IMG/VR virus record: IMGVR_UViG_3300005056_000002
Location: 1-64,000 of that record
DNA from: a virus
Strand: one strand, 5' to 3'
DNA length: 64,000 nucleotides
Part shown: in pieces, positions 1,295 to 58,597 of the stretch
How positions within the stretch are numbered: position 1 is the stretch's first letter
Layout of the letters: the number at the start of each line of letters is the position of its first letter
Position numbers and translations under genes: made by a program
The notes under the pieces: generated by a model
What the model was told of the DNA's origin: nothing
Database searches by the model: none
What the model saw: the letters and a program-made list of their open reading frames with translations, nothing else

Positions 1295-1873
1295 TTACTG
1301 TCTTGCTTTAAGTATTCTCTTTACATTACCTTCCTCTGCAAATATTACATAAGGTGCTTTATCCCATATGTGGTGTACACCAGTGAAATTAGCTCTACAT
1401 AGTTCATCTATATCCTTAAGACGCTGACTAGAGTGTAAATCATATCTAGTAAGTATAAGTATCTTATCTATGTCTGACCTAGGTATCATTGGTTCAAGCG
1501 TCAAAGGTAAATGCTCAATAGCTTTATATATCTCCGATGGAGAAGCTATAGGTGCTTTACTACCTACTATACATTCTGATACCTCTGTATAATAGATATC
1601 AAATGAAGTTGGGTGTACACTTATAAACATCCTGTCTTTACTATCAGGTGTGTATACTAACCATTCATCAATCTCTACTGTAAGTAAATCAATATAACTA
1701 TCTAATGTAGGTAGTTGTACTAAAGGCGCACCATCGTGGTCTACACCACCATAGATATTGTTCTGCTTCTCTTGTAACATAAGTATTACTCTATCCTTAT
1801 GCTTGTTTGTGAATTGAATAGCTTGTACTATCTTTCCATTTATGTCTGTATATTGTTTCATGATAATTTCCAT
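1295..1873 (-). CDS. hypothetical protein (188-192 aa)
   Basis: Longest ORF of the left block. A second ATG at 1861..1859 forms an ATGA overlap with the stop of 1858..2043, so 1861 may be the true start. Confidence 0.6.
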   Translation of the reverse strand: MEIIMKQYTDINGKIVQAIQFTNKHKDRVILMLQEKQNNIYGGVDHDGAPLVQLPTLDSYIDLLTVEIDEWLVYTPDSKDRMFISVHPTSFDIYYTEVSECIVGSKAPIASPSEIYKAIEHLPLTLEPMIPRSDIDKILILTRYDLHSSQRLKDIDELCRANFTGVHHIWDKAPYVIFAEEGNVKRILKARQ

Positions 1874-2043
1874 GTTTTATATACTGCGTACAGTATGATT
1901 AATACTCCTATTAGGAAGTGTATCGTTAGGGCTAGTATGTTTGGGTCGTATTCTGTTGGTGATACACCTAATGTCCACCCTAATGATGATATACATACTA
2001 CGACACCTATTGCTAGTATTTGTTCGGGTCTTAGATTCTTCAT
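1858..2043 (-). CDS. small 2-TM membrane protein, paralog A
   Basis: 61 aa. MKNLRPEQILAIGVVV... aligns with MKKKLRPEQILVIGLLV... of the next ORF, indicating a tandem duplicate. Confidence 0.5.
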   Translation of the reverse strand: MKNLRPEQILAIGVVVCISSLGWTLGVSPTEYDPNILALTIHFLIGVLIILYAVYKTWKLS

Positions 2044-2231
2044 ACCTTAGATGATCTATATGTTGCGTACAACATGATTAGTACTCCTATTATAAAGTGT
2101 ACTACTAATAGTATTACACACTTCATAAGCCCCATCCACTTAAGGTGCATAGCTATTATCCATGTCATTGATGATAAGCTTACTAGTAATCCTATTACTA
2201 GTATTTGTTCTGGTCTTAGTTTCTTCTTCAT
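2040..2231 (-). CDS. small 2-TM membrane protein, paralog B
   Basis: The track ORF extends to 2270, but the paralog alignment favours ATG 2231..2229 (63 aa). The stop forms an ATGA overlap with the start of 1858..2043. Confidence 0.5.
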   Translation of the reverse strand: MKKKLRPEQILVIGLLVSLSSMTWIIAMHLKWMGLMKCVILLVVHFIIGVLIMLYATYRSSKV

Positions 2232-2233
2232 GG

Positions 2234-2401
2234 TTATAAGTATATAAATGATAAGATTGTTGTTGCCCATATTAAACAGATGGAGACTAATACAAAAGCC
2301 TCTATTATCTCTTTATGTATTAGTTGTTCTAATGTTCTTATTACAGCAGATAATGATGCTCCTAGTAATGCTAATTGTATTATTATGTGTAGTGGGTTCA
2401 T
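2234..2401 (-). CDS. small hypothetical protein (55 aa)
   Basis: Hand-found, below the track cutoff: MNPLHIIIQLALLGASLSAVIRTLEQLIHKEIIEAFVLVSICLIWATTILSFIYL. ATGA overlap with the stop of 2398..2778. Confidence 0.3.
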   Translation of the reverse strand: MNPLHIIIQLALLGASLSAVIRTLEQLIHKEIIEAFVLVSICLIWATTILSFIYL

Positions 2402-2778
2402 GAGTTGTTAGTTTTAAATGTTCTATATTCTTCTTCTGTACCTTTAAATGTAATATGCTGTACAAGTACATAATACTCAATAGCATCTACTGCTAAGTTA
2501 TTAGTGTAGACATATCTTAGTCCACCATCCTCAACATACTTTAAGTATCTTAATAAACCATCTACCTCTATGTGTTGTAGGGCTATTAGTTGTATGTTTG
2601 GTGTGTTGTGTAACTTGTAGTGTCTAAGTGCAGCTTCTAGCTCTTGTCTTCTACCTGTTAGTTCAATACTCTTTACTTGGTGATTTAATCTTTCTCTAGA
2701 TATTGTATCAGCCTTCTTATCAGATGATATAATCTCTTCCTTTAGTTCTTTAATTCTTTTGTTTAGGTAGTCTTCCAT
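2398..2778 (-). CDS. hypothetical coiled-coil protein (126 aa)
   Basis: ATG ORF. The N-terminal half is heptad-like and charged (KRIKELKEEIISSDKKADTISRERLNHQVKSIELTGRRQELEAALRHYK). Confidence 0.55.
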   Translation of the reverse strand: MEDYLNKRIKELKEEIISSDKKADTISRERLNHQVKSIELTGRRQELEAALRHYKLHNTPNIQLIALQHIEVDGLLRYLKYVEDGGLRYVYTNNLAVDAIEYYVLVQHITFKGTEEEYRTFKTNNS

Positions 2779-2781
2779 GAG

Positions 2782-2970
2782 TTATGATATTATACGTTTA
2801 TATAGTTCATTCAGCACAACAGGTGCTAAATCATTTAATGGACTATTACCAAACTCTTGTTTGAACTCTTCTTGGTTATCATCCTTCCATTCTAATAGAG
2901 TATGGTATCTAGTTGTTAGTATACCATGACTCATGCCTATCATAGGACTTGGGTTATTCTTTGTTGACAT
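2782..2970 (-). CDS. hypothetical protein (62 aa)
   Basis: ATG ORF preceded by the CTAACAACTAAAC leader (2979..2991 on +). Confidence 0.5.
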   Translation of the reverse strand: MSTKNNPSPMIGMSHGILTTRYHTLLEWKDDNQEEFKQEFGNSPLNDLAPVVLNELYKRIIS

Positions 2971-2978
2971 ATGAGTGT

Positions 2979-2991
2979 GTTTAGTTGTTAG
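2979..2991 (-). repeat. conserved small-gene leader (CTAACAACTAAAC on minus strand)
   Basis: GTTTAGTTGTTAG on +, a 13/14 match to the copies at 3110 and 3231. Lies 8 nt upstream of the ATG of 2782..2970. Confidence 0.6.
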
Positions 2992-3100
2992 ACTTATTAG
3001 TGAAGAGTGTATTAATTATGAAGTATAGTATTGTTGACCCTACTCCTATTATTAGTATGTACTTTAGTATGAATAGTATTATTGTTAGTATTGTTTGCAT
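2981..3100 (-). CDS. tiny 1-TM protein (39 aa)
   Basis: Hand-found: MQTILTIILFILKYILIIGVGSTILYFIINTLFTNKSNN. ATG is preceded by the repeated leader. Its C-terminus (..NN stop) is encoded by the leader repeat of the next gene. Confidence 0.3.
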   Translation of the reverse strand: MQTILTIILFILKYILIIGVGSTILYFIINTLFTNKSNN

Positions 3101-3109
3101 AAGTTGTTT

Positions 3110-3123
3110 GTTTAGTTGTTTAG
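3110..3123 (-). repeat. conserved small-gene leader (CTAAACAACTAAAC)
   Basis: GTTTAGTTGTTTAG on +, upstream of ATG 3100. Also encodes the C-terminus and stop of 3112..3225. Confidence 0.6.
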
Positions 3124-3225
3124 TTTATTCTCTCTTCTGACTATTGATAGTATTGCTACTACCATTACTCCTATTAATACTAACGCTGCTAGTGTTAGTA
3201 CTATTATTGCTATTATTGGAATCAT
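3112..3225 (-). CDS. tiny 1-TM protein (37 aa)
   Basis: Hand-found: MIPIIAIIVLTLAALVLIGVMVVAILSIVRRENKLNN. Same leader and same ..NN stop ending as 2981..3100, suggesting a tandem module. Confidence 0.3.
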   Translation of the reverse strand: MIPIIAIIVLTLAALVLIGVMVVAILSIVRRENKLNN

Positions 3226-3230
3226 AAGGT

Positions 3231-3244
3231 GTTTAGTTGTTTAG
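3231..3244 (-). repeat. conserved small-gene leader (CTAAACAACTAAAC)
   Basis: GTTTAGTTGTTTAG on +, upstream of ATG 3225. A further partial copy TTAGTTGTTTA follows. Confidence 0.6.
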
Positions 3245-3275
3245 ATTAGTTGTTTATCACTAGATATTTCATCGG

Positions 3276-3302
3276 ACTCCCAATACTCTCTATTACAGGG
3301 AG
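3276..3302 (+). repeat. ACTCC-N-ACAGGG motif copy (non-coding)
   Basis: ACTCCCAATACTCTCTATTACAGGGAG, spacer 14. The ends can pair (ACTCCC/GGGAGT). Confidence 0.8.
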
Positions 3303-3347
3303 TTACGAAATGACCCTAAAAGCTTAGGATATACTGGACACCACATC

Positions 3348-3386
3348 GTAGTGGTCGTTTTGACTACGTGTAGTGGTCGTTATGAC
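3348..3386. repeat. tandem 17-nt direct repeat GTAGTGGTCGTTwTGAC x2 (period 22) with embedded hairpins
   Basis: Copies at 3348..3364 and 3370..3386. ACCAC-atcgta-GTGGT and GTGGTC-gttat-GACCAC inverted repeats overlap them. Confidence 0.7.
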
Positions 3387-3603
3387 CACTTGGATTCGCT
3401 GTAGCCCTTGCTATCATTGAGTTTGTATATATTCCTTTTAATACTATAATAGTGACCAAAATGAGTGCCATAAAAATATGACTCTGTGATAGGGTGAATA
3501 GGTGAATACATAATGATATAAAAAACCTACTGCCCCAAATAATAGATCGAAAATAACAAATAAGGACAGTAGGACAAATCAAAATGAAAAAACCTATGAT
3601 ATA

Positions 3604-3626
3604 CCCTGTACCAAACAAAGTGGAGT
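3604..3626 (-). repeat. ACTCC-N-ACAGGG motif copy (non-coding, minus strand)
   Basis: Reverse complement reads ACTCCACTTTGTTTGGTACAGGG, spacer 12. Only three G. Confidence 0.6.
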
Positions 3627-3737
3627 ACAAGGTGACATAAATGACGATAAACCACTAACAACCACCATGATATACCTGAAAATATGACAAAACAAGTAAT
3701 AATGGTGTGATGCTAGTGGAAGCTGTGATAGTGTAAG

Positions 3738-3766: not shown

Positions 3767-3900
3767 AATGTGTAATGTATGATAGTGTGTGACACAAATA
3801 ACTGTACTAGCTGTGTGTGAAATGTGATGTGAGATAGTATATGGAACTAAGGCTGTAGTAGCTCTAAGTAAAGTAATATACTATAGATGTAAAAAATAGG

Positions 3901-3953
3901 CTAGGTAAGGTAAGTATGGAAGGTACTAGCAGCTGTAACTAGGTAAGGTAAGT
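3901..3953. repeat. 15-nt direct repeat CTAGGTAAGGTAAGT x2
   Basis: Exact copies at 3901..3915 and 3939..3953. Confidence 0.7.
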
Positions 3954-4263
3954 CGTAAACTGCGACATCTACGACCTTCCGAACCCTCTAACTAACTAAC
4001 TACTAAGCATACTCCTACGCTAAGTGTACCTAAAGTGTCTAAAGTACTATAATATCATAAACTCTATGGTATCTATGTCCTGTAGAGTGTGCCTTGGTGG
4101 CGTGTGAATGAATTTTTGTCATAAAAATAGCTCCAAAGACGAATCTAAGGAGCTAAAGGTATTGGGGACATGTAATATGTGGTCAGGGGCACAGTGTGTG
4201 CATACGTAGGAGTGGACATAGTGTGTGTTGCACCATGTCTTCACCCTCCCCCAAAGGTATATC

Positions 4264-4428
4264 CTACGTAATGTGGTGAAATGCTCTAACAGCTATGAAT
4301 ATACATATAACGCCAGCTAATACCACTAAAGGTATCTGTGTTGCTATAAGAATTAAACCTAGCATAAGTATTAGAACTATTTGCGCAACTAGTAATGAAA
4401 CTAGAAGGACTTGATGTATTGTCTTCAT
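4264..4428 (-). CDS. small 2-TM membrane protein (54 aa)
   Basis: Track ORF 4264..4452 begins with TTG. The first ATG (4428..4426) gives MKTIHQVLLVSLLVAQIVLILMLGLILIATQIPLVVLAGVICIFIAVRAFHHIT. Confidence 0.45.
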   Translation of the reverse strand: MKTIHQVLLVSLLVAQIVLILMLGLILIATQIPLVVLAGVICIFIAVRAFHHIT

Positions 4429-4461
4429 AATATTCTCTGTTATTGGATGCAAAGATAGTCA

Positions 4462-4641
4462 TTAGTTGACTATCAGTTGGGTTATAACTGTGAATATTAC
4501 GGTAATTGTTGCAAGCTTGGGATTCCTTGTAATTGAATCTATGCTGCTAACATGGGCTATAGAGTATTGTGGTAATGATGCTTGAATAGCATGTCCTATG
4601 TTCTTTCCTCTTTGTACTGTAATTGTATGTGATGTCTTCAT
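4462..4641 (-). CDS. small hypothetical protein (59 aa)
   Basis: Hand-found, one residue below the track cutoff: MKTSHTITVQRGKNIGHAIQASLPQYSIAHVSSIDSITRNPKLATITVIFTVITQLIVN. AACTAAC-type leader upstream. Confidence 0.3.
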   Translation of the reverse strand: MKTSHTITVQRGKNIGHAIQASLPQYSIAHVSSIDSITRNPKLATITVIFTVITQLIVN

Positions 4642-4725: not shown

Positions 4726-5307
4726 TTAGTTTTGTGCAGCGTACTCTGCTTCCGCAGCAGCTTGAGTAGCATCATTTACTTCATATGTACCACCTGATGA
4801 ATTAATAGTTGTAGTTGGTTCAGCAACTACAGGTGCATAGATATCAGCGATACCAGCAGTAGCATCAGCAATAGCAAGTGCGTTCATTTGCAATGCTTGG
4901 TACTGCATGTTCTGCTCTAGTTCTAAGAACCCATCAACAACTCTTGCTTGGTCACGTTCTAATGTACGTTCGTCACCAACACTAGCAGTACCAAAGTCAG
5001 GATGTCCTACCTTCATACATAAACTGTCTTCTGTTACTTCCCACTTGTCACCCTTCTTAGAGTATTCGATGTTACCTTCTACGATACCACCTTTCAAGCC
5101 TTTGAACGCCATACGTACAGCAGGATGCTCAATGTTTTGTACGTTGTTACCAATTAAATACGAGTTCTTCAAGTCTTGAAGCATCTCTTTGGGTTTACGT
5201 ACAATTGCGGTCTTACCACATGTAGTCTTAATAACAGTTAAATTAATAACCTCACCTGCTGCGTTCTTATTGATTAACGCTACTGATTGTATTCTAGTCT
5301 TTACCAT
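4726..5307 (-). CDS. hypothetical protein (193 aa), likely strongly expressed monocistronic unit
   Basis: Clean ATG ORF followed within 8 nt by a hairpin plus T-run terminator (4691..4718). Ala/Glu-rich acidic C-terminus. No family recognised. Confidence 0.7.
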   Translation of the reverse strand: MVKTRIQSVALINKNAAGEVINLTVIKTTCGKTAIVRKPKEMLQDLKNSYLIGNNVQNIEHPAVRMAFKGLKGGIVEGNIEYSKKGDKWEVTEDSLCMKVGHPDFGTASVGDERTLERDQARVVDGFLELEQNMQYQALQMNALAIADATAGIADIYAPVVAEPTTTINSSGGTYEVNDATQAAAEAEYAAQN

Positions 5308-38716: not shown

Positions 38717-40261
38717 ATGGCAAAGCATAATAAAAGAGGTAGAGCAGTACCTAAAGCCTTACTAGGTGCGCTAATAAGTACAGGAGTAAGTGCTGTTACT
38801 GGTATGATAGCATCTGATAGAGCTAAGAAGGAAGCTGACAAGAAAAGAAGAACAGGAATAGCTGTTCAGAAAGGTAACGAACGTTTAGAAGACATAAACG
38901 AGTTACAAGACTTCGATACCGAAGGACAAGGAGCAGTTGATTACTACAAAAATGGGGGGAAAATTGACCCCCCTGCTAAGAAGGGTAATCCTCATACACC
39001 TAGAAGTACAGCTTACAGAAGGTATGAAACTACTGCTAGAAACAAGTCAGCTAGAACAGTAAAAGGAGCTGGAATTGGAGCTAAAAGAGCTAATCCTAAA
39101 GGAAGGAAAGTAACAAGTGGTTCAGTTAACTCTTATGGTAAAGGGGGTAGAATCAACCCGAACTCCACTTATTCTACTACAGGGGGAAAATTAGTTCCCA
39201 TATCGAAAGATATGAATTTAGCTGTAGGTAACAAACATGGAGAGACTAAGATAGATGGTACATCAGGTATCAAGCTAAAGAAAGGTGGTAAAGCTATTGT
39301 AGAGGTTGAAGGAGGAGAACCAATCAAGAATGACAAGATGGTTTATAGTGATAGACTATCTCCAGATGGTGGTAAGACTTACGCAGGTAAAGCTGTGGAT
39401 TTAGCTACTAAGAAGCACGCTGCTAAAGGTAATAGAGCTAGAGTAAATCAACTAGATAAGGCTGAAAATGCTTTATTTGCTAAACAGGAGAACTCTAAGA
39501 AAGGTGGTAAGAAGGATGGTAGAGCTATTCCTAAAGCTGGATTTGGAGATTTCATAGGTAAGGCTTTTTCTAAGAAGAACCTTAAGGGTACAGCAGAGAG
39601 CCTTATACCTGCTATTGATAATATAGGTAATGCTATTATTAATGCTAACACACCTAAGATACAAGGTCCTAGTTTAACTAGAAGAAAGGCAGGTAAGACT
39701 ACAGTAAATGTAAACCCACAACTAGCAGAGACTCAAAGAGCTGTTAATGATGTTGCAGGTAATGTACAACAAAACACTTCTAATAGTGCTGTTGCTAGGT
39801 CTAATATTGCTTCTGCTAGATTAAAGGGTGCTAATCAGAAAGGTAGAATACTTGCAGGTAAGGAGAACGCAGAGACAGCCTTAATCAATGCAGAGAATGA
39901 TAAGCAAGCAAGAGTTAATGCTTCTAATGCTGATAAGGTAGATAGAAACAATATGCAGCAAACTCAGAGAGCTGATGCGGTAGGTGCTAGAACTAGTGCT
40001 AATTTAGCTAATCTTGCAGGAGACTTTATTGATAAGAAGAACTTTGATTCTAAAGAAGCTTACAATAAGGACAGGGTGGATATAGCAAAGCAAATGTATA
40101 ACAAGGGAACTACTGCTAGAGCAGATGCTTTATTAGCTTCCCCTGCGGAACAAGCAGAAGAAGAGGAAAGACTACGAAAGATGCGAGGAGGTATCAGAGG
40201 TGGTAATAGAAAGTTTAGAGCAAGAGGTTCTAATCAAAATTTAGGAACAAGACTAACATAA
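38717..40261 (+). CDS. highly basic low-complexity protein (514 aa), putative internal/ejected virion protein
   Basis: Lys/Arg/Gly/Asn/Ala-rich throughout (KKGNPHTPRSTAYRRYETTARNKSARTVKGAGIGAKRANPKGRK...). Sits between the tail gene and the SLT-containing protein. Confidence 0.5.
   Translation: MAKHNKRGRAVPKALLGALISTGVSAVTGMIASDRAKKEADKKRRTGIAVQKGNERLEDINELQDFDTEGQGAVDYYKNGGKIDPPAKKGNPHTPRSTAYRRYETTARNKSARTVKGAGIGAKRANPKGRKVTSGSVNSYGKGGRINPNSTYSTTGGKLVPISKDMNLAVGNKHGETKIDGTSGIKLKKGGKAIVEVEGGEPIKNDKMVYSDRLSPDGGKTYAGKAVDLATKKHAAKGNRARVNQLDKAENALFAKQENSKKGGKKDGRAIPKAGFGDFIGKAFSKKNLKGTAESLIPAIDNIGNAIINANTPKIQGPSLTRRKAGKTTVNVNPQLAETQRAVNDVAGNVQQNTSNSAVARSNIASARLKGANQKGRILAGKENAETALINAENDKQARVNASNADKVDRNNMQQTQRADAVGARTSANLANLAGDFIDKKNFDSKEAYNKDRVDIAKQMYNKGTTARADALLASPAEQAEEEERLRKMRGGIRGGNRKFRARGSNQNLGTRLT
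39162..39186 (+). repeat. ACTCC-N-ACAGGG motif copy (inside 38717..40261, phase 1)
   Basis: ACTCCACTTATTCTACTACAGGGGG, spacer 12. Confidence 0.8.
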
Positions 40262-40267
40262 GATAAT

Positions 40268-43072
40268 ATGCCTAAAATATTTAGTGATTTAAGTTATAAC
40301 AACAGAACCTTAAAACCAGTAGGTCGTCCAGTGGACGACCTTGCTGCGTTATACAAAAAGAAGGATGCAGATTATAACTATGTGGTGGATAATCAACACA
40401 AGATCAAAACTGCACTAGGTAACATACCTACAGCAGCAGGAAGTCAAGGTGACCAAGACCTCGTATTAGCAGCACAGCAATCAGCTGCTAAGACTATGGG
40501 TGGTTTCGGACCAGACTTAGAGAACAAAGTAATAGATACTAAGAATCTAGCTAACGACATTTCTAACAACTTCGGGTTATCGGAGATTCAAAAGAGTGCT
40601 AAACAACAAGGAGCTTATGAAGGTGGACTTAAAGAGAGGTTTGATAAAGGCGAGATTAGCCAAGGGCAGTATAATAATGCTGTTGCCTATTCTCGTAATA
40701 ACTACAAGGGGATATCTAAAGACCCAAGGACTGGACTATATAGCGGTTCGTACAGCGGTAGAAGTGTTTCAGACTATATAGATGTATCTAAAGAAGTAGC
40801 AGGAGTTCTTAAGGGATTCAAAGCTGACGAGATACCGTTAACTTTCCAAGGTAAGAGTATTGTTAAAGACCCTAATGGAACTGGGTATCTAATGTATGGT
40901 ACTAACAAGAAGGTTAGTGAAGCTGACTTGATTGAATCTGCTAAGACCTACATGAAAGGTAATGACCTAATACAAGGACAGTTTGATGAAGAAGTCTTCT
41001 ATGAACTTAATGGTATGGGTAAAGTAGGTATTAATGACATCAAAAAGCTACTAGCACAGGGTGTAAATACTGAAATTGCGGAATCGTTGGGTATAAAATC
41101 TGCCAAGGATTTAGCCACTTTGAGCGAAACTTTACAGAAGCAAGGAATCACTTTAGAGGACGCTTATAAGACTTTGAGAAAAGACCAACTTACTACAGAT
41201 GCAATGCAATTGGGTGTCGCAAAAGAAGGATTTGAAGAATATAAGCTTAAATACATGAAGCCTATAGTTGATAAGGTTGGTACAGGTACAGGTAAAGGTA
41301 AAGGTAGTGCAGCTGAGAGAGGTTTAATGACTATTAATAGAATAGGTGTTACACAAAGAGTATCTCCTACTGACTATACTGCACTTAGAGCAGGTAAGAA
41401 AGAGATTACAGCTACTATTACTACTCAAATGGCTAAATTGAAGTCTATGCAGGCTGCTATTAAGACTGACCCTAGTATCTCTACAGGAGTTATTAATGAC
41501 TTGAAGAGAAGTATTGATACAGGTAACAGAGACTTAGAGGATTTAGAGAGACAAGAGAACAGTATCAAGTCTTTCATTGTAGATAAGTCTAAGATAGACT
41601 TTGATGCTGAATACGCTGAGTACGTTAGTCTACAGAGTAATAGACAATCTATAGCTAAGTCTGGTTCACCTCAAGGTATGTCAGGTGGGAAGTTTAAGGT
41701 AATGTCTAAGAAGAAGTTTATTAATGATGCTATTAACCACTATATACAAGGAGAAGATGATGGTCTATTTGGTTCTAAGTACATCAAGCCTAGTTCAGGT
41801 CTAATATCAGGTTCTGATCCTGAATGGGCAGCTAGTAAGATAGCAGCTAAGATGGGTAAGATGATTGATAACCCAATGACAGAAGATGCATTTACCTTTG
41901 TTGTAGGTAACGCTGATAAGAAGACTCACTTACCTTATAGAAACTTACTAAGTGTGATGACTCAGAACTTAAAGAGTACACCTAAGAACTTTGTAACACC
42001 TGATGGTAAGGATTTATTTGCTAACATAGAAGATGAACTAAATGTAAATTTAGAGGATATAGATTTAAACTCGTTTAAAGTTACACCTCTATTAGAATAC
42101 AAGAATGGTAAGCCTGCTTATGCTGTTACTGTTTATAGTAATAGAACTAAGACTGGTAAGACTAAGAACCTAGGTAAGGTTATTGTTAACTATAACGGAA
42201 GTCCTGTAGGTCATGAACAGCTTATTAATAAGATATCAGTAGAGGAAGCTAAGTTCTATGCAGCTAAACACGCAGAGCAACCATTAGAAGGTCATGACTT
42301 AACTATCTATAGAAAGCTAGCTAAGACTTATATTAACAGTATGCCAGGAGGTAAAGAGCTAGATAGACTTAATATCTATACTGCTCAACCCGATGTACCG
42401 TTAAAGTGGAAGATAAATGAAGACTCTAGTGTGAACATTGTACCGAAAAAAGCTAGTGCCGATGGAGATTTCGGTGATGTGGTTTTTGAGTTACAAAACA
42501 ATGATGGTCAAGTATTTGGTATCAATAAAGATGGAAAAGAAGTGTGGGATTTACCCGAAAATCTAAAAGAAAGTCATACCTTTAGTGGTGCGGATGAATT
42601 GAAAGAAGTAGTAGGTACACAGATGCTAAACAACCATCTAAACAAACCAACTACTCCTGTTAATGATATTAACGCTAATAAAGTAATTGATATTAATAAG
42701 GTAATACAAGCAGAAAGCGGTGGTAGACCCGATGTAGTTAACACTAAGAGTGGAGCTACTGGCTTAATGCAATTATTACCTAATGGTCATAAACTAGGAA
42801 GTCCTGTAGATGACTTCAATAAACTAAATGGAACTGCGTATACTGCGGAGGACTTAAAGAAGCCCGAAGTAAACAAGCAAATTGGAACTTGGTATTTACA
42901 GACTAAGATACCCCAAATGATGGCTAGGTATAACTTACCTGATAACTCAGCTTATAGACTTATAGGTTATAACTGGGGGATAGGTAATCTAAAGAAATGG
43001 CATGAGAACGGAGCAGACTACAACAAGTTGCCCGAAGAGACTAGGAATTATATAACTAAGATTTTAAATTAA
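40268..43072 (+). CDS. internal virion protein with C-terminal lytic transglycosylase domain
   Basis: 934 aa. The C-terminus has SLT motifs IQAESGGRP (catalytic Glu-Ser), SGATGLMQLLP and IGYNWGIGN. Analogous to T7 gp16-type ejection proteins. Confidence 0.7.
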   Translation: MPKIFSDLSYNNRTLKPVGRPVDDLAALYKKKDADYNYVVDNQHKIKTALGNIPTAAGSQGDQDLVLAAQQSAAKTMGGFGPDLENKVIDTKNLANDISNNFGLSEIQKSAKQQGAYEGGLKERFDKGEISQGQYNNAVAYSRNNYKGISKDPRTGLYSGSYSGRSVSDYIDVSKEVAGVLKGFKADEIPLTFQGKSIVKDPNGTGYLMYGTNKKVSEADLIESAKTYMKGNDLIQGQFDEEVFYELNGMGKVGINDIKKLLAQGVNTEIAESLGIKSAKDLATLSETLQKQGITLEDAYKTLRKDQLTTDAMQLGVAKEGFEEYKLKYMKPIVDKVGTGTGKGKGSAAERGLMTINRIGVTQRVSPTDYTALRAGKKEITATITTQMAKLKSMQAAIKTDPSISTGVINDLKRSIDTGNRDLEDLERQENSIKSFIVDKSKIDFDAEYAEYVSLQSNRQSIAKSGSPQGMSGGKFKVMSKKKFINDAINHYIQGEDDGLFGSKYIKPSSGLISGSDPEWAASKIAAKMGKMIDNPMTEDAFTFVVGNADKKTHLPYRNLLSVMTQNLKSTPKNFVTPDGKDLFANIEDELNVNLEDIDLNSFKVTPLLEYKNGKPAYAVTVYSNRTKTGKTKNLGKVIVNYNGSPVGHEQLINKISVEEAKFYAAKHAEQPLEGHDLTIYRKLAKTYINSMPGGKELDRLNIYTAQPDVPLKWKINEDSSVNIVPKKASADGDFGDVVFELQNNDGQVFGINKDGKEVWDLPENLKESHTFSGADELKEVVGTQMLNNHLNKPTTPVNDINANKVIDINKVIQAESGGRPDVVNTKSGATGLMQLLPNGHKLGSPVDDFNKLNGTAYTAEDLKKPEVNKQIGTWYLQTKIPQMMARYNLPDNSAYRLIGYNWGIGNLKKWHENGADYNKLPEETRNYITKILN
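42665..43069 (+). other. SLT-like lytic transglycosylase domain (aa ~800-934 of 40268..43072)
   Basis: E-S at 42713..42718, then GLMQ and YNxG motifs in canonical order. Confidence 0.7.
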
Positions 43073-43078
43073 ATCACA

Positions 43079-46000
43079 ATGGGTAAACAAAAGAGTAAGG
43101 CTGTTAATACTAACAGCCTTTTTGGTGGTCTTGACACTACTAATACTACTACACCTGATGATACTGGCGGTTTACTAGCTGGAATGAGTGCCTTTAAACG
43201 AGGCACTTTTTCTACGTTAGAAAATACTGATAAAGGTGTTGACTTGGACAACTACAAGCATTTAGGCGAAGGCTTAATTAACTTTGGTAGTGTGGAACAA
43301 GCTAACACAACTAGAGCTAGGAATCAGAGTAATTGGGAACAAGTATATCACGCAGGGGCTAAGTTCTTGCCTAACGTAGCGTTAGAGATACTTAACCAAG
43401 CAGGTAGTATTCTTGATGTCGAAGACTACTTTAACAGTGATGATGAACTAGGAAACTGGTTAAGTACTTGGGCTACAGAACAGAAAGCTGCAAGTAACGC
43501 CCGTTCACCTATCTACAGGGAAAACGAAGGGGAAGCATTAGACTTCGGGGACTTCGCTTGGTGGATGGAGAATGGAAGTAGCTTAGTAGAGAGCGTAACT
43601 GCTTTTGCTGCTGTAGGTTTCGCTACAGGTGGAGCTAACTTAGCTGCATTAAACAGAGGTGCTAAAGCTTTAGAGTTCTTTAAAGTTCTTGGTAAAGGTA
43701 AAGCTGCTGCTAGTGGTACTAAAGCTGCTATACAAGGTGCAGCTACCGTTAACAATGCTTTCTTATTGAACCATGCGGAAGGTATGGGTATTGCAACTAG
43801 CGTATATGCTACAGTTTATAAACGTGAGTTAGAGAAGCTACAAGCAGCAGGTAATAAAGATGCTGATGCGTTAGCTAAGAAGAAAGCAGCTAAACAAGGT
43901 GAAAGTGCTTTAAGTGCTAATAGAATCAATATGGTATTGAATCTATCTAGTGCTAGCTTATTCATGAAGACTCCTGCTTTAACTAGACAGGTAAGAAAAG
44001 CTGTATCTAGTAAGAAGAACATTAGTAGAGCTGTAGGAGAAGGATTCCAAGAGTCAGGAGAAGAGACTATCAACATGTTGGCTGAGAAGCAAGCATTGGA
44101 CGATGACTACGGATTCACTAAAGGTCTTGAAGATGTATTAAGTAAAGAAGGGTTTGAAGCACAACTACTTGGTTTTGTAGGTGGAGCAGGACAAACAGGA
44201 CTTACTAATGCAGGTAGGAGATTGAAGCTAAGAAAGGACGAAAAAGGTTCAAGAATTAGTGATAATACCTTACAGAATCGTGCGTATGCGAAGCAGAAAG
44301 AGAGCCTAGATAAAATTGCAGAAATGAGTAAGGGCGAAAAATTATCGACCAGTTCTGATGCGATTATGAGGTCTAAAGAAGTTTTTCAATTACATAGAGA
44401 GATAGATCAAGCATTTGAAGATGGTGATACTCCTAAGTTTGAACAGCTTAAAGGTCAACTATTGAGTAACCAAGCTTACGATGCTTTTAGTAATGGTACT
44501 ACTGAGCAGCTAATTAACGTCTTTAAAGGTATTAAGGATATGGATGTAGAAGCTGCTGGTGATAAAGGTATGGACGTTAAGACTTATAAAGACCAAGCTA
44601 CAGAAGCTATTGACTTTATAGAAGGTCTTGAAGTAGAGTTCAACAAATCACAAGCGTTTGTTAATGCTGCTGATGTTTATAGCAATAGAGCTAGGAATAC
44701 ACAACTACGTACTAGAAAGGCTAAGTTAGAAGCTAACTTACCTAAGATAGTTGAGGAAGTTAAGCAAGATTTGGCAGACCTAGGAGTTAAGGAAGAAGAG
44801 ATAGAGATTGATGGTCAATTGGCTTTCAAGATTAAGACTAAGAAGAATATAGAAGGTCTTGCAAGTCTTGCAGATTATAAGGCGAGTTTGGGGGAAATCA
44901 GAGAAATCAGAAGGACTCAAACACGACTTGGACAAAGACACTTAAAGCTTACCTCAGCCGAGGAACAAACTAAGATCAAAGAGAAGATTAGAAAAGGTCA
45001 AGAAGAATTAGCAGAGGAAGCTTTGGAAGATGAGTTAGCCCCTGTAAAGAAGAAGGCTACGGAGCAAAAGGCGGCTGTAGTTCAAACTGCCGAAGATAAC
45101 AAGGTTGTTAAAGCGCAAGAAGATGCTGCTGCGGCTATAGCTAAGGCTAATCCTACTGCACCTGCTGCACCTACTACTGACCAATCTTATACATTCAAGT
45201 CTGATAACCCAGGTTTAGTTACTGTAGTTGATGGTGCTAATAAAGTAATGGCTTCTAAAGTTCCTACTAAGAGTAAGATAGAATCTCTTAAAAGAGGTAT
45301 AGCTCACTTAACTAAGAACGCACACTTAGAAGGTATGTCAGGTATCATAGCACAACACACAGAAGCTATTAGAGTATTGGAAGCAGAAGAGGAAGCTCAA
45401 CAAGCTCAACAAGCTCAAAGTTCTATGGACAACAGTGATATAGATAGTGCTTTAGATGGTTTAGCTAATGATATGTCTCCTGACGAGTTTGATGGTGATG
45501 TTGCTTTAGAGCAAGATAGTTATGATGGTGACCAAGACCCTATCTCACAAGATAAGGAAGAACAGATAGTAGGACAAGTTAGAAAGCTTATCCATGCTTT
45601 GAATGTAATGGAAGATGCTGGTTTAGATACTAGTAACTTTAAGGTAGTTTCTGATAGACTACAAAAGACTGTAGGAGAAGAGAAGCACCACAAGATATTT
45701 GAGAAGTTCAAGAGTTTATATAACCTTACAGGTCAATCACCTGTGCCTGTTGTTGATACTTATGAGAGTCTTTACTTTACTGATGCTGAGAATGAAGCAA
45801 TAGCAAGTAATGACCAAATAGTACGTGCTGATAGTATCTTAAATGATTTTTATTCTCATACTGCTTTTGGATTCAAATTAGAGGAAAAAAGAGCATTAAA
45901 AGAGTACATAGAATCACAAGGGTATAAAGTTAATGCTAAAGAGAATGTAACGGAAGCAGACAGCTTTAAAATCGTTGAAGCTTATAATAAGGTTGCCCAT

Positions 46001-58000: not shown

Positions 58001-58534
58001 GGTTTAGCTACCTCCACGTCTGCTATATTAAAGGGGCTGACAAGAAGTGCAACGTTAGGTTATGCTTTCAAGAGTCATGACTTTAAAGCTGCAATGGAAG
58101 GTACTGATTTAACTGATAACGATGCTGCTAATCTTAGAAAGACTATGACAGAAGCAATTATGTACTTGACGTTAGGTGGTAGTTACTTAATGCTGAAAAG
58201 CTTTAAGGATGGACTAGACGATGATGATGATAGAAAGTATGTATTGAACTTACTTCTTAATCAGACTGGTAGACTTAAGACTGATATCTTGTTTTACTTA
58301 GACCCTAGGGAAACTAAGAACTTGATGAAAGACTTAATACCTGTTACAAGTCTTATTACTGATACCTTTCAAATGGTGGATGCTATAGCACAGTTTGCTA
58401 TGGGTGAAGATGATGTTAAAGGCGGTATTTACAAAGGTGATAGTAGGTTGTTAAGAGAAGTTCTTCAATCTATGCCACTAGGAACACAGGCATATAAGTC
58501 GGTGAACTACGTGTCTCAAACATTTGAGAAGTAG
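43079..58534 (+). CDS. giant polyvalent virion protein (5151 aa) with ART-like domain and two-barrel RNA polymerase-like module
   Basis: Single stop-free 15,456-nt ORF with an ATG start 6 nt after the upstream stop. Gly/Ala-rich hydrophobic N-terminal segments. ART-like YHGT..GFWFT..EYVVFDP block (aa ~1490-1615). beta-prime-like RIPT..(39 aa)..GSDFDADK (aa 2887-2931). Hydrophobic segments near the C-terminus. Followed by a bidirectional terminator. Confidence 0.85.
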   Translation: MGKQKSKAVNTNSLFGGLDTTNTTTPDDTGGLLAGMSAFKRGTFSTLENTDKGVDLDNYKHLGEGLINFGSVEQANTTRARNQSNWEQVYHAGAKFLPNVALEILNQAGSILDVEDYFNSDDELGNWLSTWATEQKAASNARSPIYRENEGEALDFGDFAWWMENGSSLVESVTAFAAVGFATGGANLAALNRGAKALEFFKVLGKGKAAASGTKAAIQGAATVNNAFLLNHAEGMGIATSVYATVYKRELEKLQAAGNKDADALAKKKAAKQGESALSANRINMVLNLSSASLFMKTPALTRQVRKAVSSKKNISRAVGEGFQESGEETINMLAEKQALDDDYGFTKGLEDVLSKEGFEAQLLGFVGGAGQTGLTNAGRRLKLRKDEKGSRISDNTLQNRAYAKQKESLDKIAEMSKGEKLSTSSDAIMRSKEVFQLHREIDQAFEDGDTPKFEQLKGQLLSNQAYDAFSNGTTEQLINVFKGIKDMDVEAAGDKGMDVKTYKDQATEAIDFIEGLEVEFNKSQAFVNAADVYSNRARNTQLRTRKAKLEANLPKIVEEVKQDLADLGVKEEEIEIDGQLAFKIKTKKNIEGLASLADYKASLGEIREIRRTQTRLGQRHLKLTSAEEQTKIKEKIRKGQEELAEEALEDELAPVKKKATEQKAAVVQTAEDNKVVKAQEDAAAAIAKANPTAPAAPTTDQSYTFKSDNPGLVTVVDGANKVMASKVPTKSKIESLKRGIAHLTKNAHLEGMSGIIAQHTEAIRVLEAEEEAQQAQQAQSSMDNSDIDSALDGLANDMSPDEFDGDVALEQDSYDGDQDPISQDKEEQIVGQVRKLIHALNVMEDAGLDTSNFKVVSDRLQKTVGEEKHHKIFEKFKSLYNLTGQSPVPVVDTYESLYFTDAENEAIASNDQIVRADSILNDFYSHTAFGFKLEEKRALKEYIESQGYKVNAKENVTEADSFKIVEAYNKVAHLDKKFKNHVEVTSVKFNVLDFVTSKQDIDRELNDAVDEVLLDPSILKKGEAITFKVLDEVIYEDGTIVTKEGTVTKDGETVNRKPSEIAPIAIFYKGEQIKGAYLHTMDWVNDANIAESGDVARQRRYLSSIRQAVLDAGLDGITSKVSERSDGWLLADPKGAKNLVSINLPKVQIGIGKDGFVETGELTIANVDGKDIQNGMPYAVITTGSNEQRALPIQPIQIKEHPEYIESMVNAVKMYFANDPNDTRVNKLAEETGINIRSIKGLEQYLNKFIHLYPYKDSKTGKSYYKFNDFKKLLNSKDDNLSMVRIVGDNLEFGRGFDVGGAVGFLNRQILNQLPADKRKATIEKGIEKFTNVISNNSYMNVNKDAMLKDFQLPLITDTDVNVTTSSYDDFIKQHLRSSFYSHTLPNGKEIYTIQSNIEFDTSFAVNEKPVRTDTAVETPMIEVAAPKVVTSGDTTYTFSTEEFNEEDLDPVIDDTGSISDIFNNTPDLAKAGTVQEYLDYLGTVFPNSEVSYPLYHGTKNKFKTFDVNTWNNETDKIFHSKGFWFTHFEEEAENYGGIIKTVLVDIKKPHRKPVGFNAKNERVFADQVDDVTIALEQGNDSAILDINEGGLDGESPVTEYVVFDPKQIHTLGSKEDIEGFKKYTTVDLDPTIISDERLAELKGTTPKSLLIQGVHINIQNTVVDHLTANFLKSTLKDGDSSAAFNSFVAFKDTLKSAREHYNDARKSDDANQARVGERYHGIVSALYNNYDSLIDLAVNKLSKVNGLNVKLEGKTMDLLAERLDFDSADSNAISEDGELKEYNNWANDDVFRENIKEKMSTSVKNFFSAIDDAQVKDGVIVPVKGFLGITKTVSFDAVINDLNAILSYHNDISEGSVITPTFDNMVEVIENWVDKKPYLQNVLEALDDADEKIKNEFVSVMSKHYTHHIYVLKNKDGKFFVNNSDANNIVETIQTKWMNNLYDNDLIQENDGTFVVDGEKVAELEIEVEGLIQDLKSNSPDKYKTGSSVLKKLGFGFEDALVKHLIDNGVKYSKNHHVLLHMLTSSDGAIKLYLNNLKAISGKDVQANHPFADNTALKGFAREIGKSFPTYFASSFKDVRGRTYFGYSSNKFLTDRVRELKSNEYLLRRLQKQPFTANSLWGNALLNDSKFKKYFGYFTYDGTTTVGKEVGKKLEQSSPAEVEQAKVALFFSMRKGRDFIIRLFYPTTSNKTVQPGLQVLGKDWADGTNNGQLRKNQQHELFEILVQPEINRILSIQDDADKHNIKGYEEGGRMFNMLPALNNVKELWEKDGKLKTNINSDAKLKAVVLSEIRQYINSAVSDKLSKWDSYGLIETKEEVQMVEGDRVWMETPRALIVTGKDPKAEAFNFVVNYLVANVNIYQTFITDPAFYFKSKQWKTVVAREGVQETVNTRQGALKHYNKEDWLQEHEDIFNNIGKRLAADAAPGTDLPNSVNDSFVLGYLRDSEREVYLMEYYTALLGAEGATDYLAANSTDAQEFTTLSEHLHVLVLQGKLSTEDKVRLEGLEISGSTLLTKDIAQIFQPVKPVYVANHWKNDIEHRIYVKSSSFPLIKQLTRNLEIDKLRVAMVEQKVDRIAFESAVKVGGTNTGTQIYTDNEGTVSKSIKIDTIGRLSREGFKIQQEIPYDENKQSINDGTQQIKLLTANLRDIKGFKVRGDDSSHTGQSIQDLLDKSYKAIYDEHYTNLVADIEYDEINNTLNTDKLAELLRKEAVTRGYPLYDIAALDTYVDQHGETKFIVPLWLTGVSGKLEAMLNSIVDSRVRKLKPKGKSYTLGASEGFKPVKQGKDAQDTINNTTGIVWDAEWFGRTDGQLQPMRIEDANGNVMGSEGFDKATGFVKYAEILVPFKFKDDKGKLVKVEDYTNEDGTMDMTKLSPELLNMFGFRIPTQYLNSMSAIKVVGFLPKSSGDLLLAPADWAVQMGSDFDADKLYSNSYNTSFDSETGALSIYEGDSVIKTMENHILDLHFSIMGNKDAEVQRRILKPLDFGMLKDLADEIYGFSTGRSKGYGMTEEYQSFKYLNARAGKAGIGVFSTDNTFIAAVQNKGIFLQKREGTSIQAYSIRLGGQDSNMISDTEVNVKGANRDKTDVISAFQSLAVDDENEQGLFKLNINTSTFDAIRTLVMSGFEEDIISYFINQPIIKKYTELKVQADDSLSPLKEIEIPAKIAELFPITDTTLDVNGTDFKLKYGNTSKAELLRVISGGEADVNRQRALFNLFTEVTEFGKNIQFVQSTINTHSAGLGKDLFYSTIKAQQVNSLQNYSVVANADKLIGEYMQLDGSGASGWGKANDTEKLKMITDLRAEGYMPTTEVKVKGDFKAAVTLIKPTTLAGFTTTNALNLNNKMWSRFFPYGNRGIDTVIDALKVHIGKGTSLGSQSDNSRQAFSVIKSYLAVTGMGTYTDGDVLSERNRLMIDTKDNKSLASIIHLLRNTNKISNDFINRLELDLKKEVLPSNIVYKASVAENVDERMINASFAAMLLNNTTVLGEFNGITYTPQKLAQDLITQQLLMGGVQKSNQFIKYIPINYLVNAGYYAKLDNTNFEDAHLFNGNAITSQYLQHNPDKVQVKGLDVGFEFFEKKTIVRKTSEGDAFMDGVFSIKNPKAVSGYDIYFFNEVSDQWEQKDTLGLKDLLEYNNEGSYGESIIKSNQVPKVKTVDLPTDPTKVNKILEVAKVNEKGPDVISEPNNESLNDFYNLKSNEDIVTKLSYIFNKIQTTNKDPYHQLMATEIGKNLDKISDYKFIINRNLKAKGSHSLKDKTIQINPTKFRGREQFESTIIEEVIHALTKKAINDNKTGEVLRLKGLLNVAQEAVKEHLASLNLDPEMEFAKVIYAMKRGEALTPFQGNVIYPVINEAEFIGRLFKSKKLQELLNNKEGNLDDKSLLAKVWDYVIEILNSVGLDIKKGSALEYAVKDILSLINLETPPSSVTGEIARTQQKERTPDFIVNKFNLLNEDGSQREVDNAQEVADWVNLHTSNLEAKVVKGYVVIENKPRYNDQFTLDLDPDTIEEKQKGKASPLLRAYNNRMKNLEKLINKAEVQGDYQRSERLKDQLEIVTEKRNETVTISSLRNIENTDLYYKGQQDMEEVKEMLKSTLTLEDTLYIRKIIHFWKKATTVLFDEQDRNSSKLMEDFKSIEKDAEVLEDLLVKEETKFMNSFIRKHGKDISVADIFAHFKDINGLSSRTLDISRSGNELLNSVFKAVKEANIDALDETNEVLKDLQDMEDSIRPILKEMGHTELYDVFRQRTADGNLTGHLVKRINRDFSRGFNSQLNSLRDLNNVDGFKAMLNWGRENLKAVKLEYLIKPNQLSKEDQALAKTYREELKAELGAVHYAEYVGQQAEMVNLYQKKLDSKLRNIAEDANVKPSEIYTDVKLKKELDTWVAKNSPYMANQYLEGSFPKVAGDAKGFNNFDFVIPLPKDANGYDANYKKIESNPKLLAFYKYYNKIDAEMQMYLPDDVKRSLAYTGVPHIGKTILELFKDKGMKVGLAPIWDEIRKSIRIVEEDVISTGTIDPVTNKVESGVAIKLTKENGAEINKHTALKALEYRTKTSQEATVEMMQKWRAEKIHELATLKSFDLGKILKVYTMTTLAYKHKSKIEDSVQLAQNILESQEEYQRTEIGKIKTDTEGNLIKNTSDNSFKNLKFQFEYFVDKFKGKSNPVEGVTTKVVLTSEEKKEKKEMEALKGALDKSLDAGTISKIDHGNSITTLDGYIDELGGVAVQSKRVDNALKWVQLTKMGWNVMSSISNVGFGYIANRIEASGGEHYTGKQLTDAYKLTGHSLWKNATFNTQETETAKKIRSIMDGWDILKDASHELFSKPLDVSLGRKTKWLSPYNVTQRTEYINQAPIMIAMMMNTKIKTDKGDVTLWDGFGKDGKWDSSKGNVEASLLAETTKTLRMKIDQVNKMNHGNYDPTSALALKKNVLGRAVSQFRTWMFEGYAIRFEKAKKDAVLGDRKGRYVSTKDFFSQVGLATSTSAILKGLTRSATLGYAFKSHDFKAAMEGTDLTDNDAANLRKTMTEAIMYLTLGGSYLMLKSFKDGLDDDDDRKYVLNLLLNQTGRLKTDILFYLDPRETKNLMKDLIPVTSLITDTFQMVDAIAQFAMGEDDVKGGIYKGDSRLLREVLQSMPLGTQAYKSVNYVSQTFEK
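45039..45065 (-). repeat. ACTCC-N-ACAGGG motif copy (antisense inside giant gene)
   Basis: Reverse complement reads GCTCCGTAGCCTTCTTCTTTACAGGGG, spacer 15. Confidence 0.7.
47546..47923 (+). other. ADP-ribosyltransferase-like (ART-PolyVal-like) domain
   Basis: SYPLYHGTKNKFKTFDV...SKGFWFTHFEEEAENYG...VTEYVVFDPKQIHTLGS gives an H / aromatic-x-(S/T) / E arrangement of the H-Y-E ART clade as found in polyvalent phage/ICE proteins. Recognised by eye only. Confidence 0.5.
48017..48044 (+). repeat. ACTCC-N-ACAGGG motif copy (giant gene, phase 0, just after ART-like domain)
   Basis: ACTCCAAAGTCTCTGCTTATACAGGGGG, spacer 15. Confidence 0.8.
50075..50101 (+). repeat. ACTCC-N-ACAGGG motif copy (giant gene, phase 0)
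   Basis: ACTCCACGTGCTCTTATTGTTACAGGG, spacer 16. Confidence 0.7.
50801..50842 (+). other. possible beta-like barrel lysine motif
   Basis: VDRIAFESAVKVGG (aa 2575-2588), about 340 aa upstream of DFDAD. Compare the RHGNKG-type motif of RNAP beta. Weak. Confidence 0.25.
51725..51880 (+). other. beta-prime-like double-psi beta-barrel with DxDxD catalytic motif
   Basis: MFGFRIPTQYLNSMSAIKVVGFLPKSSGDLLLAPADWAVQMGSDFDADKLYSN. Compare E. coli beta-prime [43 protein letters not shown]. D2926/D2928/D2930 lie at 51854..51868. Confidence 0.6.
54851..54875 (+). repeat. ACTCC-N-ACAGGG motif copy (giant gene, phase 0, linker-like region)
   Basis: ACTCCACCTTCTTCTGTTACAGGGG, spacer 13. Encodes TPPSSVTG. 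Confidence 0.85.
56629..56651 (-). repeat. ACTCC-N-ACAGGG motif copy (antisense inside giant gene)
   Basis: Reverse complement reads ACTCCACTTTATTCGTTACAGGG, spacer 12. Closely resembles the 3604 copy. Confidence 0.65.
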
Positions 58535-58558: not shown

Positions 58559-58597
58559 AAAAAGGAGCAAAACCGTAATGGTTCTGCTCCTTTTTTT
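58559..58597. terminator. bidirectional intrinsic terminator between convergent blocks
   Basis: AAAAA-GGAGCAaAACC-gtaat-GGTTcTGCTCC-TTTTTTT. A 12-bp stem with one mismatch, A-run upstream and T-run downstream. Sits between the giant gene (+) and 58733..59149 (-). Confidence 0.8.

Follow-up and report, generated by a model that had tools for sequence, protein, structure and literature searches.

The virus record IMGVR_UViG_3300005056_000002 of IMG/VR, of which positions 1 to 64,000 were analysed here (the window), contains an open reading frame (ORF) that takes up about a quarter of this DNA, and such a locus raises two questions: whether a frame of this length is one genuine gene, and what a phage might do with its product. 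The ORF lies at 43079..58534 on the plus strand, begins with ATG, and continues as a single open frame of 5151 codons for a cysteine-free protein of 5151 amino acids and 576.6 kDa, for which collinear homologues (P0002-P0008) were found. In this study, we found by sequence comparison that this giant protein is very probably the virion RNA polymerase (RNAP) set of crassviruses in completely fused form, uniting counterparts of crAss001 gp47, gp50, and gp49, or of phi14:2 gp65-gp67. It has been reported that gp66 and the products of two adjacent genes are present in virions, that they are fused into one protein in some phages, that one protein of the set has a zincin-like domain, and that phi14:2 gp66 is carried into the cell along with the DNA, where it transcribes early genes despite rifampicin (Drobysheva et al., bioRxiv 10.1101/2020.03.07.982082). 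The three-protein fusion is therefore already known in the literature, a point missed in the original prediction for this locus, which was made from the sequence alone and described the ORF as a polyvalent, membrane-active protein with ART-like and RNAP-like parts. Our analysis adds four points to the known fusion: the absence of cysteine, an EExxH variant of the zincin motif, zincin-like domains that are homologous between three phage groups, and inserts at the module junctions.

The polymerase is located in the middle of the chain, where a two-barrel (gp66/QDE-1-type) DNA-dependent RNAP module was assigned to residues ~1620-3680 (47936..54118, plus strand), its outer limits being taken from the length of gp66 and from the alignment with FpV4. 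The module matches PDB entry 6vr4_A, gp66 of Cellulophaga phage phi14:2 (E 3.6e-27), over residues 2470-3162 versus gp66 969-1687. This match consists of two stretches, 2470-2938 against gp66 969-1387 and 2959-3162 against gp66 1489-1687, the latter spanning the range of the gp66 bridge helix and trigger loop. The module also matches PHROG 16227 (E 9e-63) and, by blastp, crAss001 gp50 and FpV4 gp32, the latter over residues 1764-3938 with 26% identity across more than 2000 amino acids (E 6e-80). The catalytic motif DFDAD at residues 2926-2930 (51854-51868, plus strand) aligns with DFDID of gp66, and GSDFDxDK is invariant in the alignment of the eight homologues. Both marks of this polymerase family, homology to the catalytic double-psi beta-barrel of gp66 and the DFDxD motif, were thus found, and the polymerase is encoded with virion genes and beside its companions, which lie here as modules within the same ORF. 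No PHROG match was obtained for the giant protein outside the polymerase, no PDB sequence match for the stretches before and after the polymerase core, no match in a DNA-level search of a phage collection, and nothing by PADLOC.

The N-terminal part, here termed the N-module (residues 1-1470, 43079..47488, plus strand), appears to be the counterpart of crAss001 gp47 and p-crAssphage gp45 minus their zincin domain. By blastp, p-crAssphage gp45 aligns near its N-terminus (residues 82-249) with residues 73-235 of the N-module (E 7e-13), and hhalign aligns residues 1000-1233 with crAss001 gp47 1099-1323 at a collinear place, albeit marginally (E 2e-4, probability 47%). No match to the N-module was found in PDB (searched with two alignments), Pfam, or PHROGs, nor in the ESM Atlas with residues 940-1470. 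An AlphaFold2 (AF2) model of residues 1-600 is all-helical and of low confidence (pLDDT 52), too poor to serve as a query for fold searches. Within the N-module, a partly acidic, low-complexity linker at residues ~560-950 (44756..45928, plus strand) has an identity to the homologues of 0.17-0.24, versus 0.4-0.6 elsewhere. The net charge of residues 751-1000 is -24, which bears out the acidic region of the original prediction as a poorly conserved one.

The other end of the chain, the C-module (residues 4004-5151, 55088..58531, plus strand), is mostly alpha-helical and matches counterparts of crAss-like phages by blastp, residues 4713-5135 aligning with crAss001 gp49, FpV4 gp33, and the C-terminus of p-crAssphage gp44. 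C-modules were found in 32 IMG/VR loci with 27-41% identity, in most of them over nearly the full length. The AF2 model of the C-module (1148 residues) has a mostly helical body (pLDDT 75.5, pTM 0.73), and resembles in BFVD the 'RNA-polymerase subunit' cr111_1 (TM score 0.57) and the phi14:2 'structural protein' S0A048 (0.56), the scores ranging over 0.5-0.58. The model also has weak similarity to polyvalent-protein domains and to an internal core protein of phiKMV type (E ~1e-2). No solved relative of the C-module was found in PDB by sequence or fold, Foldseek giving only noise from CRM1-type solenoids (TM score ~0.07) and a wide VIA-align search only generic three-helix-bundle matches at model residues 35-156 with Z below 10. 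These fold searches used the whole 1148-residue model and may miss single domains, and the N4 C-terminal domain entry 11fw may postdate the library, which extends to April 2026. A short acidic run, GLDDDDDRKY at residues ~5044-5053 (58208-58237), follows a hydrophobic helix and is kept in the C-modules of all relatives.

Between the polymerase and the C-module lies a zincin-like (minigluzincin-like) domain at residues 3681-3990 (54119..55048, plus strand), which aligns with the HExxH regions of FpV4 gp32, crAss001 gp47, and p-crAssphage gp45. A profile of 17 sequences of this domain matches in PDB an internal virion protein of 1337 amino acids (9sfn_G, 3.2e-8), the N4 virion RNAP (vRNAP) at its HExxH region (11fw_A, 1.5e-5), a tetrameric ejection protein (8vb2_A, 8.8e-5), and the minigluzincins projannalysin (2.9e-5) and MJ1213. 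By hhalign, the domain matches N4 C1 (residues ~2210-2320) at 94.8% and phiKMV gp37 419-547 at 95.5%. By these profile comparisons, the domain is homologous to C1 of the N4 vRNAP and to the internal virion proteins of phiKMV gp37/gp16 type, and because of these matches it can be regarded as a common part of podovirus ejection proteins. The same profile detected no second zincin-like copy in the N-module.

The motif of this domain is EEVIH (residues 3781-3785) in place of the canonical HExxH, retaining the catalytic Glu and the second His, and no HExxH is present anywhere in the 5151 residues. A nearly invariant Glu in a conserved downstream 'xEF' block is a candidate third metal ligand according to the alignment. 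The first ligand is Glu in all 11 proteins that carry N-module, polymerase, and zincin-like domain in one ORF, versus His in the 14 other forms examined, most of which are split. The fused forms with EExxH represent a single clade and thus probably one evolutionary event.

Is the single frame real? An assembly or sequencing error merging two or three neighbouring genes has to be considered, in view of the fact that the modules are two or three genes in most relatives. Such an error is contradicted by seven other proteins of 4990-5680 amino acids from Logan, JGI, and NCBI assemblies, which were retrieved with residues 1-1750 as query from proteins 2833-9015 amino acids long; these seven independent homologues are collinear with the whole 5151-residue protein at 26-57% identity. 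In IMG/VR, one contig has an ORF of the same kind of 4946 amino acids, and at two further loci the frame runs for more than 3900 amino acids up to the end of the fetched DNA. In total, the N-module, polymerase, and zincin-like domain share one frame in at least ten related metagenomic phages. Furthermore, sequence conservation spans both module junctions of the giant protein, and 15.5 kb at 36% G+C proceed without any stop. We therefore reject an assembly artefact, which we regard as extremely improbable given the collinear full-length homologues from other assemblies.

The fusion and fission of these modules, as well as the order of the domains, vary widely among crassviruses. In the 32 IMG/VR loci, the C-module is mostly a separate gene of ~1340 amino acids, although it is sometimes part of ORFs of 1640-1855 amino acids, two of which have an HExxH motif near the start, and sometimes shares a frame with the polymerase. 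The conserved N-terminal segment was found in 40 IMG/VR loci, always at about residues 70-160 of its ORF, and these ORFs end at 1416, 1890, 1957, 2554-2868, 3253, or 3641 amino acids or run beyond 3900. The zincin-like domain is located at the end of the N-module protein in crAss001 and p-crAssphage, and after the polymerase in FpV4 and in the giant protein, as in N4. One locus, IMGVR_UViG_3300043409_001893, apparently has a zincin-like region in an upstream gene (2717-3280) and another, with HEILHA, at the start of the C-module gene, which may point to a duplicated domain or to a remnant of its relocation.

Comparison with cultured phages supports the same assignment and shows where the giant protein departs from them. 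The closest cultured relative of its polymerase part is found in the Flavobacterium phage FpV4, whose gp32 (4287 amino acids) and gp33 (1596 amino acids) keep the same order of RNAP, zincin-like domain, and C-module. In contrast to the giant protein, FpV4 distributes these over two genes, has the canonical HEVIH, has no reported ART, and carries 1860 N-terminal residues in gp32 without blastp-detectable similarity to the giant protein. The phi14:2 set (gp66 being the virion RNAP of PDB 6vr4; Drobysheva et al. 2021) has the homologous polymerase with the same DFDxD site and a protein, S0A048, that folds like the C-module, and likewise stands at the end of the structural genes. Unlike the giant protein, it consists of three genes and lacks the ART insert and the EExxH motif, and by published account its zincin-like domain precedes the polymerase, in gp65, rather than following it. 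The homologues in phi14:2 and FpV4 are annotated as virion structural proteins. In crAss001 (Bayfield et al. 2023), the same three modules occur in the same neighbourhood of muzzle, two smaller cargo proteins, and RNAP set, and gp47, gp49, and gp50 were identified in virions by mass spectrometry along with the smaller cargo proteins gp45 and gp46 (PMC10172136). The differences are that the crAss001 genes are separate and on two strands, that ART is absent, and that the zincin-like domain is a canonical HEAFH one at the C-terminus of gp47.

The giant protein is also set apart from the rest of its proteome by its lack of cysteine. There is no cysteine among its 5151 residues, nor among the 6599 residues that it makes up together with the 514- and 934-amino acid proteins encoded upstream, compared with 0.68% in the rest of the proteome (P ~5e-16 for the giant protein and ~2e-20 for the three proteins). 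All eight giant homologues have zero cysteines and the split versions have 0-3, those of crAss001 being cysteine-poor as well (1, 3, and 1 in the 2341, 2412, and 1349 residues of gp47, gp50, and gp49). In the related IMG/VR loci examined, the gene next to and upstream of the N-module gene encodes a cysteine-free protein in every case and the gene before that a protein with 0 or 1 cysteine, versus 4-12 in the muzzle-like proteins of the closest relatives. For the ejection operon of Schitoviridae, cysteine suppression has been published as a trait that is conserved and that is attributed to the oxidising periplasm through which the proteins pass (PMC11445570), and N4 gp50, gp51, and gp52 each have none; the crAss001 paper makes no mention of cysteine (PMC10172136). 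The cysteine-free signature thus lends independent, sequence-level support to an ejection of the 514-, 934-, and 5151-residue proteins. The functional set marked by it in the giant-protein phage is the same as in N4-like phages, from which the signature was already known, and looking for it may be an inexpensive way to recognise ejected proteins of uncultured phages from sequence.

The two upstream neighbours fit such a set. The 514-amino acid protein (38717..40261, plus strand) is basic (pI 10.3) with a transmembrane-like stretch near its N-terminus (residues 14-32) and may be a small ejection protein, and the 934-amino acid protein (40268..43072, plus strand) carries towards its C-terminus an SLT lytic transglycosylase domain (Pfam PF01464, E 4.8e-13, residues 810-917) and is a candidate peptidoglycan-cutting ejection protein. 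The giant ORF starts 6 nt past the stop of the 934-amino acid gene and closes, as the last gene, a 52-kb rightward structural block in which large terminase, portal, major capsid protein, crAss ring protein, a 1272-amino acid muzzle-like protein, the 514- and 934-amino acid proteins, and the giant ORF follow one another. An ejectosome or cargo set including these two neighbours, as originally predicted, is therefore supported by three lines of evidence: the homology of the modules to the crAss001 virion proteins gp47, gp49, and gp50, the crAss001-like gene neighbourhood, and the lack of cysteine in all three proteins.

Taken together, it is very likely that the giant protein is a virion-packaged RNAP delivered to the host, with its two large companions fused to it in one 577-kDa chain, a proposal in which we place considerable confidence. 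The steps by which it might act are modelled on characterised relatives, namely phi14:2 gp66, the crAss001 cargo, and the N4 vRNAP. The giant protein would be made late, alongside the structural genes, and stored in the capsid. At infection, the 514-amino acid (transmembrane-like) and 934-amino acid (SLT) proteins would exit first and open the peptidoglycan and membranes, and the giant chain would then be threaded, largely unfolded, through portal and tail, its lack of cysteine keeping it from disulfide trapping in the periplasm. In the cytoplasm, the polymerase module would refold and transcribe early phage genes without the host polymerase, and the ART insert would modify (ADP-ribosylate) a host target. 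T4 Alt, which modifies a host target, provides the model for this last step. The N-module and the zincin-like domain with the C-module would most likely have a part in encapsidation and ejection, as the N- and C-terminal domains do in the N4 vRNAP, and are probably not polymerase subunits proper.

Several points weigh against this proposal. Virion presence, delivery, and rifampicin-resistant early transcription are known from relatives only, and early-gene promoters for gp66-type polymerases are not defined. The link of the N-module to crAss001 gp47 is marginal past the first 250 residues, the roles of the N- and C-modules are assigned by analogy alone, and hhalign found no similarity of the C-module to N4 C2 or to phiKMV gp37. 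Finally, the ART domain has Trp or Phe in place of the central Tyr of its family, and its activity is not assured.

Whether the delivered protein would remain one chain is a separate matter. The giant ORF might encode a true polyprotein that is cut at the junctions (~1470-1620, ~3990-4004, and possibly ~3680) into gp47-, gp50-, and gp49-like proteins, its own zincin-like domain perhaps doing the cutting. The junctions coincide with gene boundaries of relatives and with the sites of inserts, and it has been suggested that the fused proteins probably undergo cleavage and that the polymerase might be activated by the zincin-like domain (10.1101/2020.03.07.982082), zincin-like peptidases having also been proposed as processors of polyvalent proteins (Iyer et al., PMC5512222). 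If the fused form had to cleave itself, its zincin motif would be expected to stay canonical, yet it is in the 11 fused proteins that EExxH occurs and in the 14 other forms that the first ligand is His, although this amounts to one clade and so to one event. No cleavage-site motif came to light, no search for one having been made. The N4 vRNAP, in addition, is found in virions as a single chain of 3500 amino acids. On balance, processing of this kind has an appreciable chance, yet we lean against it.

The resemblance to coliphage N4 gp50 (3500 amino acids; Schitoviridae) is one of build rather than of polymerase. Both proteins are single giant chains, ejected into the host in the case of N4 and very probably here too. 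Both consist of an N-terminal domain, a polymerase, a zincin-like domain (C1 in N4, with an HExxH domain in the same position; PMC13434306, PMC5512222), and a large helical C-terminal domain of ~1100 amino acids. Their zincin-like domains are homologous, and in both phages the giant protein and two smaller ejection proteins are cysteine-free. However, the N4 polymerase is a T7-like single-subunit enzyme, whereas that of the giant protein is a two-barrel QDE-1-like one, and the two folds are unrelated. No similarity between the N-modules of the two proteins was seen, with no direct comparison made. Relatives of N4 sometimes have ART or lysozyme domains, and N4-like vRNAPs combine ART, polymerase, and zincin-like domain in one polyvalent chain (Iyer et al. 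2017, PMC5512222). The giant protein likewise joins ART-PolyVal, a zincin-like metallopeptidase-type domain, and an early-acting enzyme in a virion-delivered multidomain chain, so that the term 'polyvalent' given to it in the original prediction fits. In contrast to the polyvalent proteins described by Iyer et al. 2017, the giant protein consists for the most part of conserved core rather than of interchangeable effectors in a row, with variation confined to its junction inserts.

These observations could be combined in a broader, speculative scheme, which we consider rather unlikely to hold in all its parts. The giant protein of this clade would be a single working chain with the build of the N4 vRNAP around an unrelated polymerase fold, and its EExxH zincin-like domain, devoid of canonical zinc chemistry, would act in packaging or ejection and belong to an ancient cassette to which N4 C1 and the gp16-type internal virion proteins also belong. 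The junctions would be slots for exchangeable injected effectors, ART here and SF1 helicase in P0002. If it is true that an EExxH zincin-like domain functions in ejection or packaging within a single-chain protein, the crassvirus 'RNAP subunits' gp47 and gp49 would therefore be modules for translocation and encapsidation. Crassviruses are among the most abundant phages known, and a lineage with the whole set in one chain offers a simple test case for the passage of 577 kDa through a tail as one thread, for cutting, and for the role of a zincin-like domain with a changed metal motif. The shared zincin-like domain links the ejection machinery of crassviruses, Schitoviridae, and T7-like/phiKMV-like phages.

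The original prediction had also ascribed a membrane-active architecture to the protein, based on Gly/Ala-rich hydrophobic segments near the N-terminus and hydrophobic segments in the last 700 residues. The former do exist, at residues 165-246 (43571..43816, plus strand), with invariant G180 and G184 and the motif LLNHAEGMGIA, and are among the best-conserved parts of the giant protein in the homologue alignments. A further Gly-rich conserved segment, LLGFVGGAGQTGLTNAG, lies at residues 363-380 (44165-44218) and has invariant G365, G368, and G369; the profile of this region gave no significant match to the pore-forming microcin E492 (E 0.49). Membrane potential was assessed by Kyte-Doolittle means over 19-residue windows. 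Only one window of the giant protein, residues 173-191, exceeds 1.3, and with 1.48 it stays below the usual transmembrane cut-off, all others being at or below 1.23. For the three C-terminal segments originally quoted, the means do not reach 1.0, and the C-module model places these segments in predicted helices. The sole clear transmembrane-like segment of the three-protein set is the one in the 514-amino acid protein, with 1.77. No segment of the giant protein therefore attains classical transmembrane hydropathy, and the membrane-active label is weakly supported by these values, although the conserved glycine-rich segments could touch membranes, as reported for N4-type vRNAPs.

This bears on the alternative that the giant protein is mainly a membrane-active, pore-forming part of the ejectosome, in which its N- and C-terminal hydrophobic segments form a DNA channel and the polymerase is a passenger. 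The conservation of the segments at 165-246 and 363-380 with their invariant glycines agrees with such a role, as does a conserved C-module segment rich in small residues, MGWNVMSSISNVGFGYIANRIEASGG. Moreover, the vRNAPs of N4 and DEV are membrane-associated, gp71-N of DEV having predicted transmembrane helices, and the zincin-like domain is common to gp16-type ejection proteins, which build part of a channel. In view of the top hydropathy window of 1.48, of C-terminal segments that fall below 1.0 inside a helical fold, and of the insignificant microcin match, we judge a pore as the main function to be unlikely, and favour a delivered polymerase with fused companions.

The last question is whether the chain hides further effectors. 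Its only Pfam domain is ART-PolyVal (PF18760) at the N-module/RNAP junction, residues ~1496-1611 (47564..47911, plus strand), with E 3.8e-11 and 44.3 bits against a cut-off of 31.2 over profile positions 9-131 of 140. This domain, together with the gp66 match and DFDAD, substantiates the ART-like and RNAP-like parts originally recognised. With regard to the catalytic H-Y-[D/E] triad, the ART motifs are YHGT, with the His present, GFWFT, and ILD/EYVVF, with acidic candidates in ILD and TEYVVF, and the central aromatic position is part of GFWFT here versus GIYFSS in P0005. A PDB sequence search with the ART domain found no solved relative. According to the alignments, P0002, P0003, P0004, and P0008 lack the insert. 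P0007 has it, P0005 has it as part of a longer one, and in P0006 there is a related segment that lacks the His. The ORFs of two IMG/VR loci, L004 and L037, gave no Pfam match of any kind.

Other inserts occupy the junctions of relatives. In P0005, residues 1428-2027 form a 600-residue insert at the N-module/RNAP junction, comprising ART-PolyVal with the canonical GIYFSS and ~400 other residues. In P0002, a 627-residue insert (residues ~3871-4498) with a Walker A motif, GRGGTGKT, at 4062 lies at the zincin-like/C-module junction, and the protein has precomputed Pfam labels of PIF1, UvrD, and AAA_30 (SF1-helicase). Judging from these labels and the Walker A motif, the P0002 insert is probably an SF1 helicase delivered within the giant protein. 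The module junctions are thus sites at which accessory domains are inserted, namely ART in the giant protein and, in P0002, probably an SF1 helicase. Apart from the ART insert and the partly acidic linker at ~560-950, the chain is conserved throughout. The more than 3000 residues that had been thought functionally dark, and a possible hiding place for anti-host effectors, are conserved over their full length in relatives. Because only inserts and linker vary, these residues are best seen as core modules of crassviruses, and further effectors hidden in the conserved parts were rejected as a candidate explanation.

As for the genome, the source is a single 88,826-bp contig of a crAss-like phage, the first 25 bases of which reappear at 88,727. 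This overlap of ~99 bp between the ends indicates a complete phage genome, either a circle or one with a short terminal repeat. Downstream of the giant ORF, at the switch of coding strand between convergent gene blocks, a hairpin with a perfect-looking 16-bp stem and runs of A and T on its flanks lies at 58559..58595, and is likely a two-way terminator that ends the giant-gene transcript.

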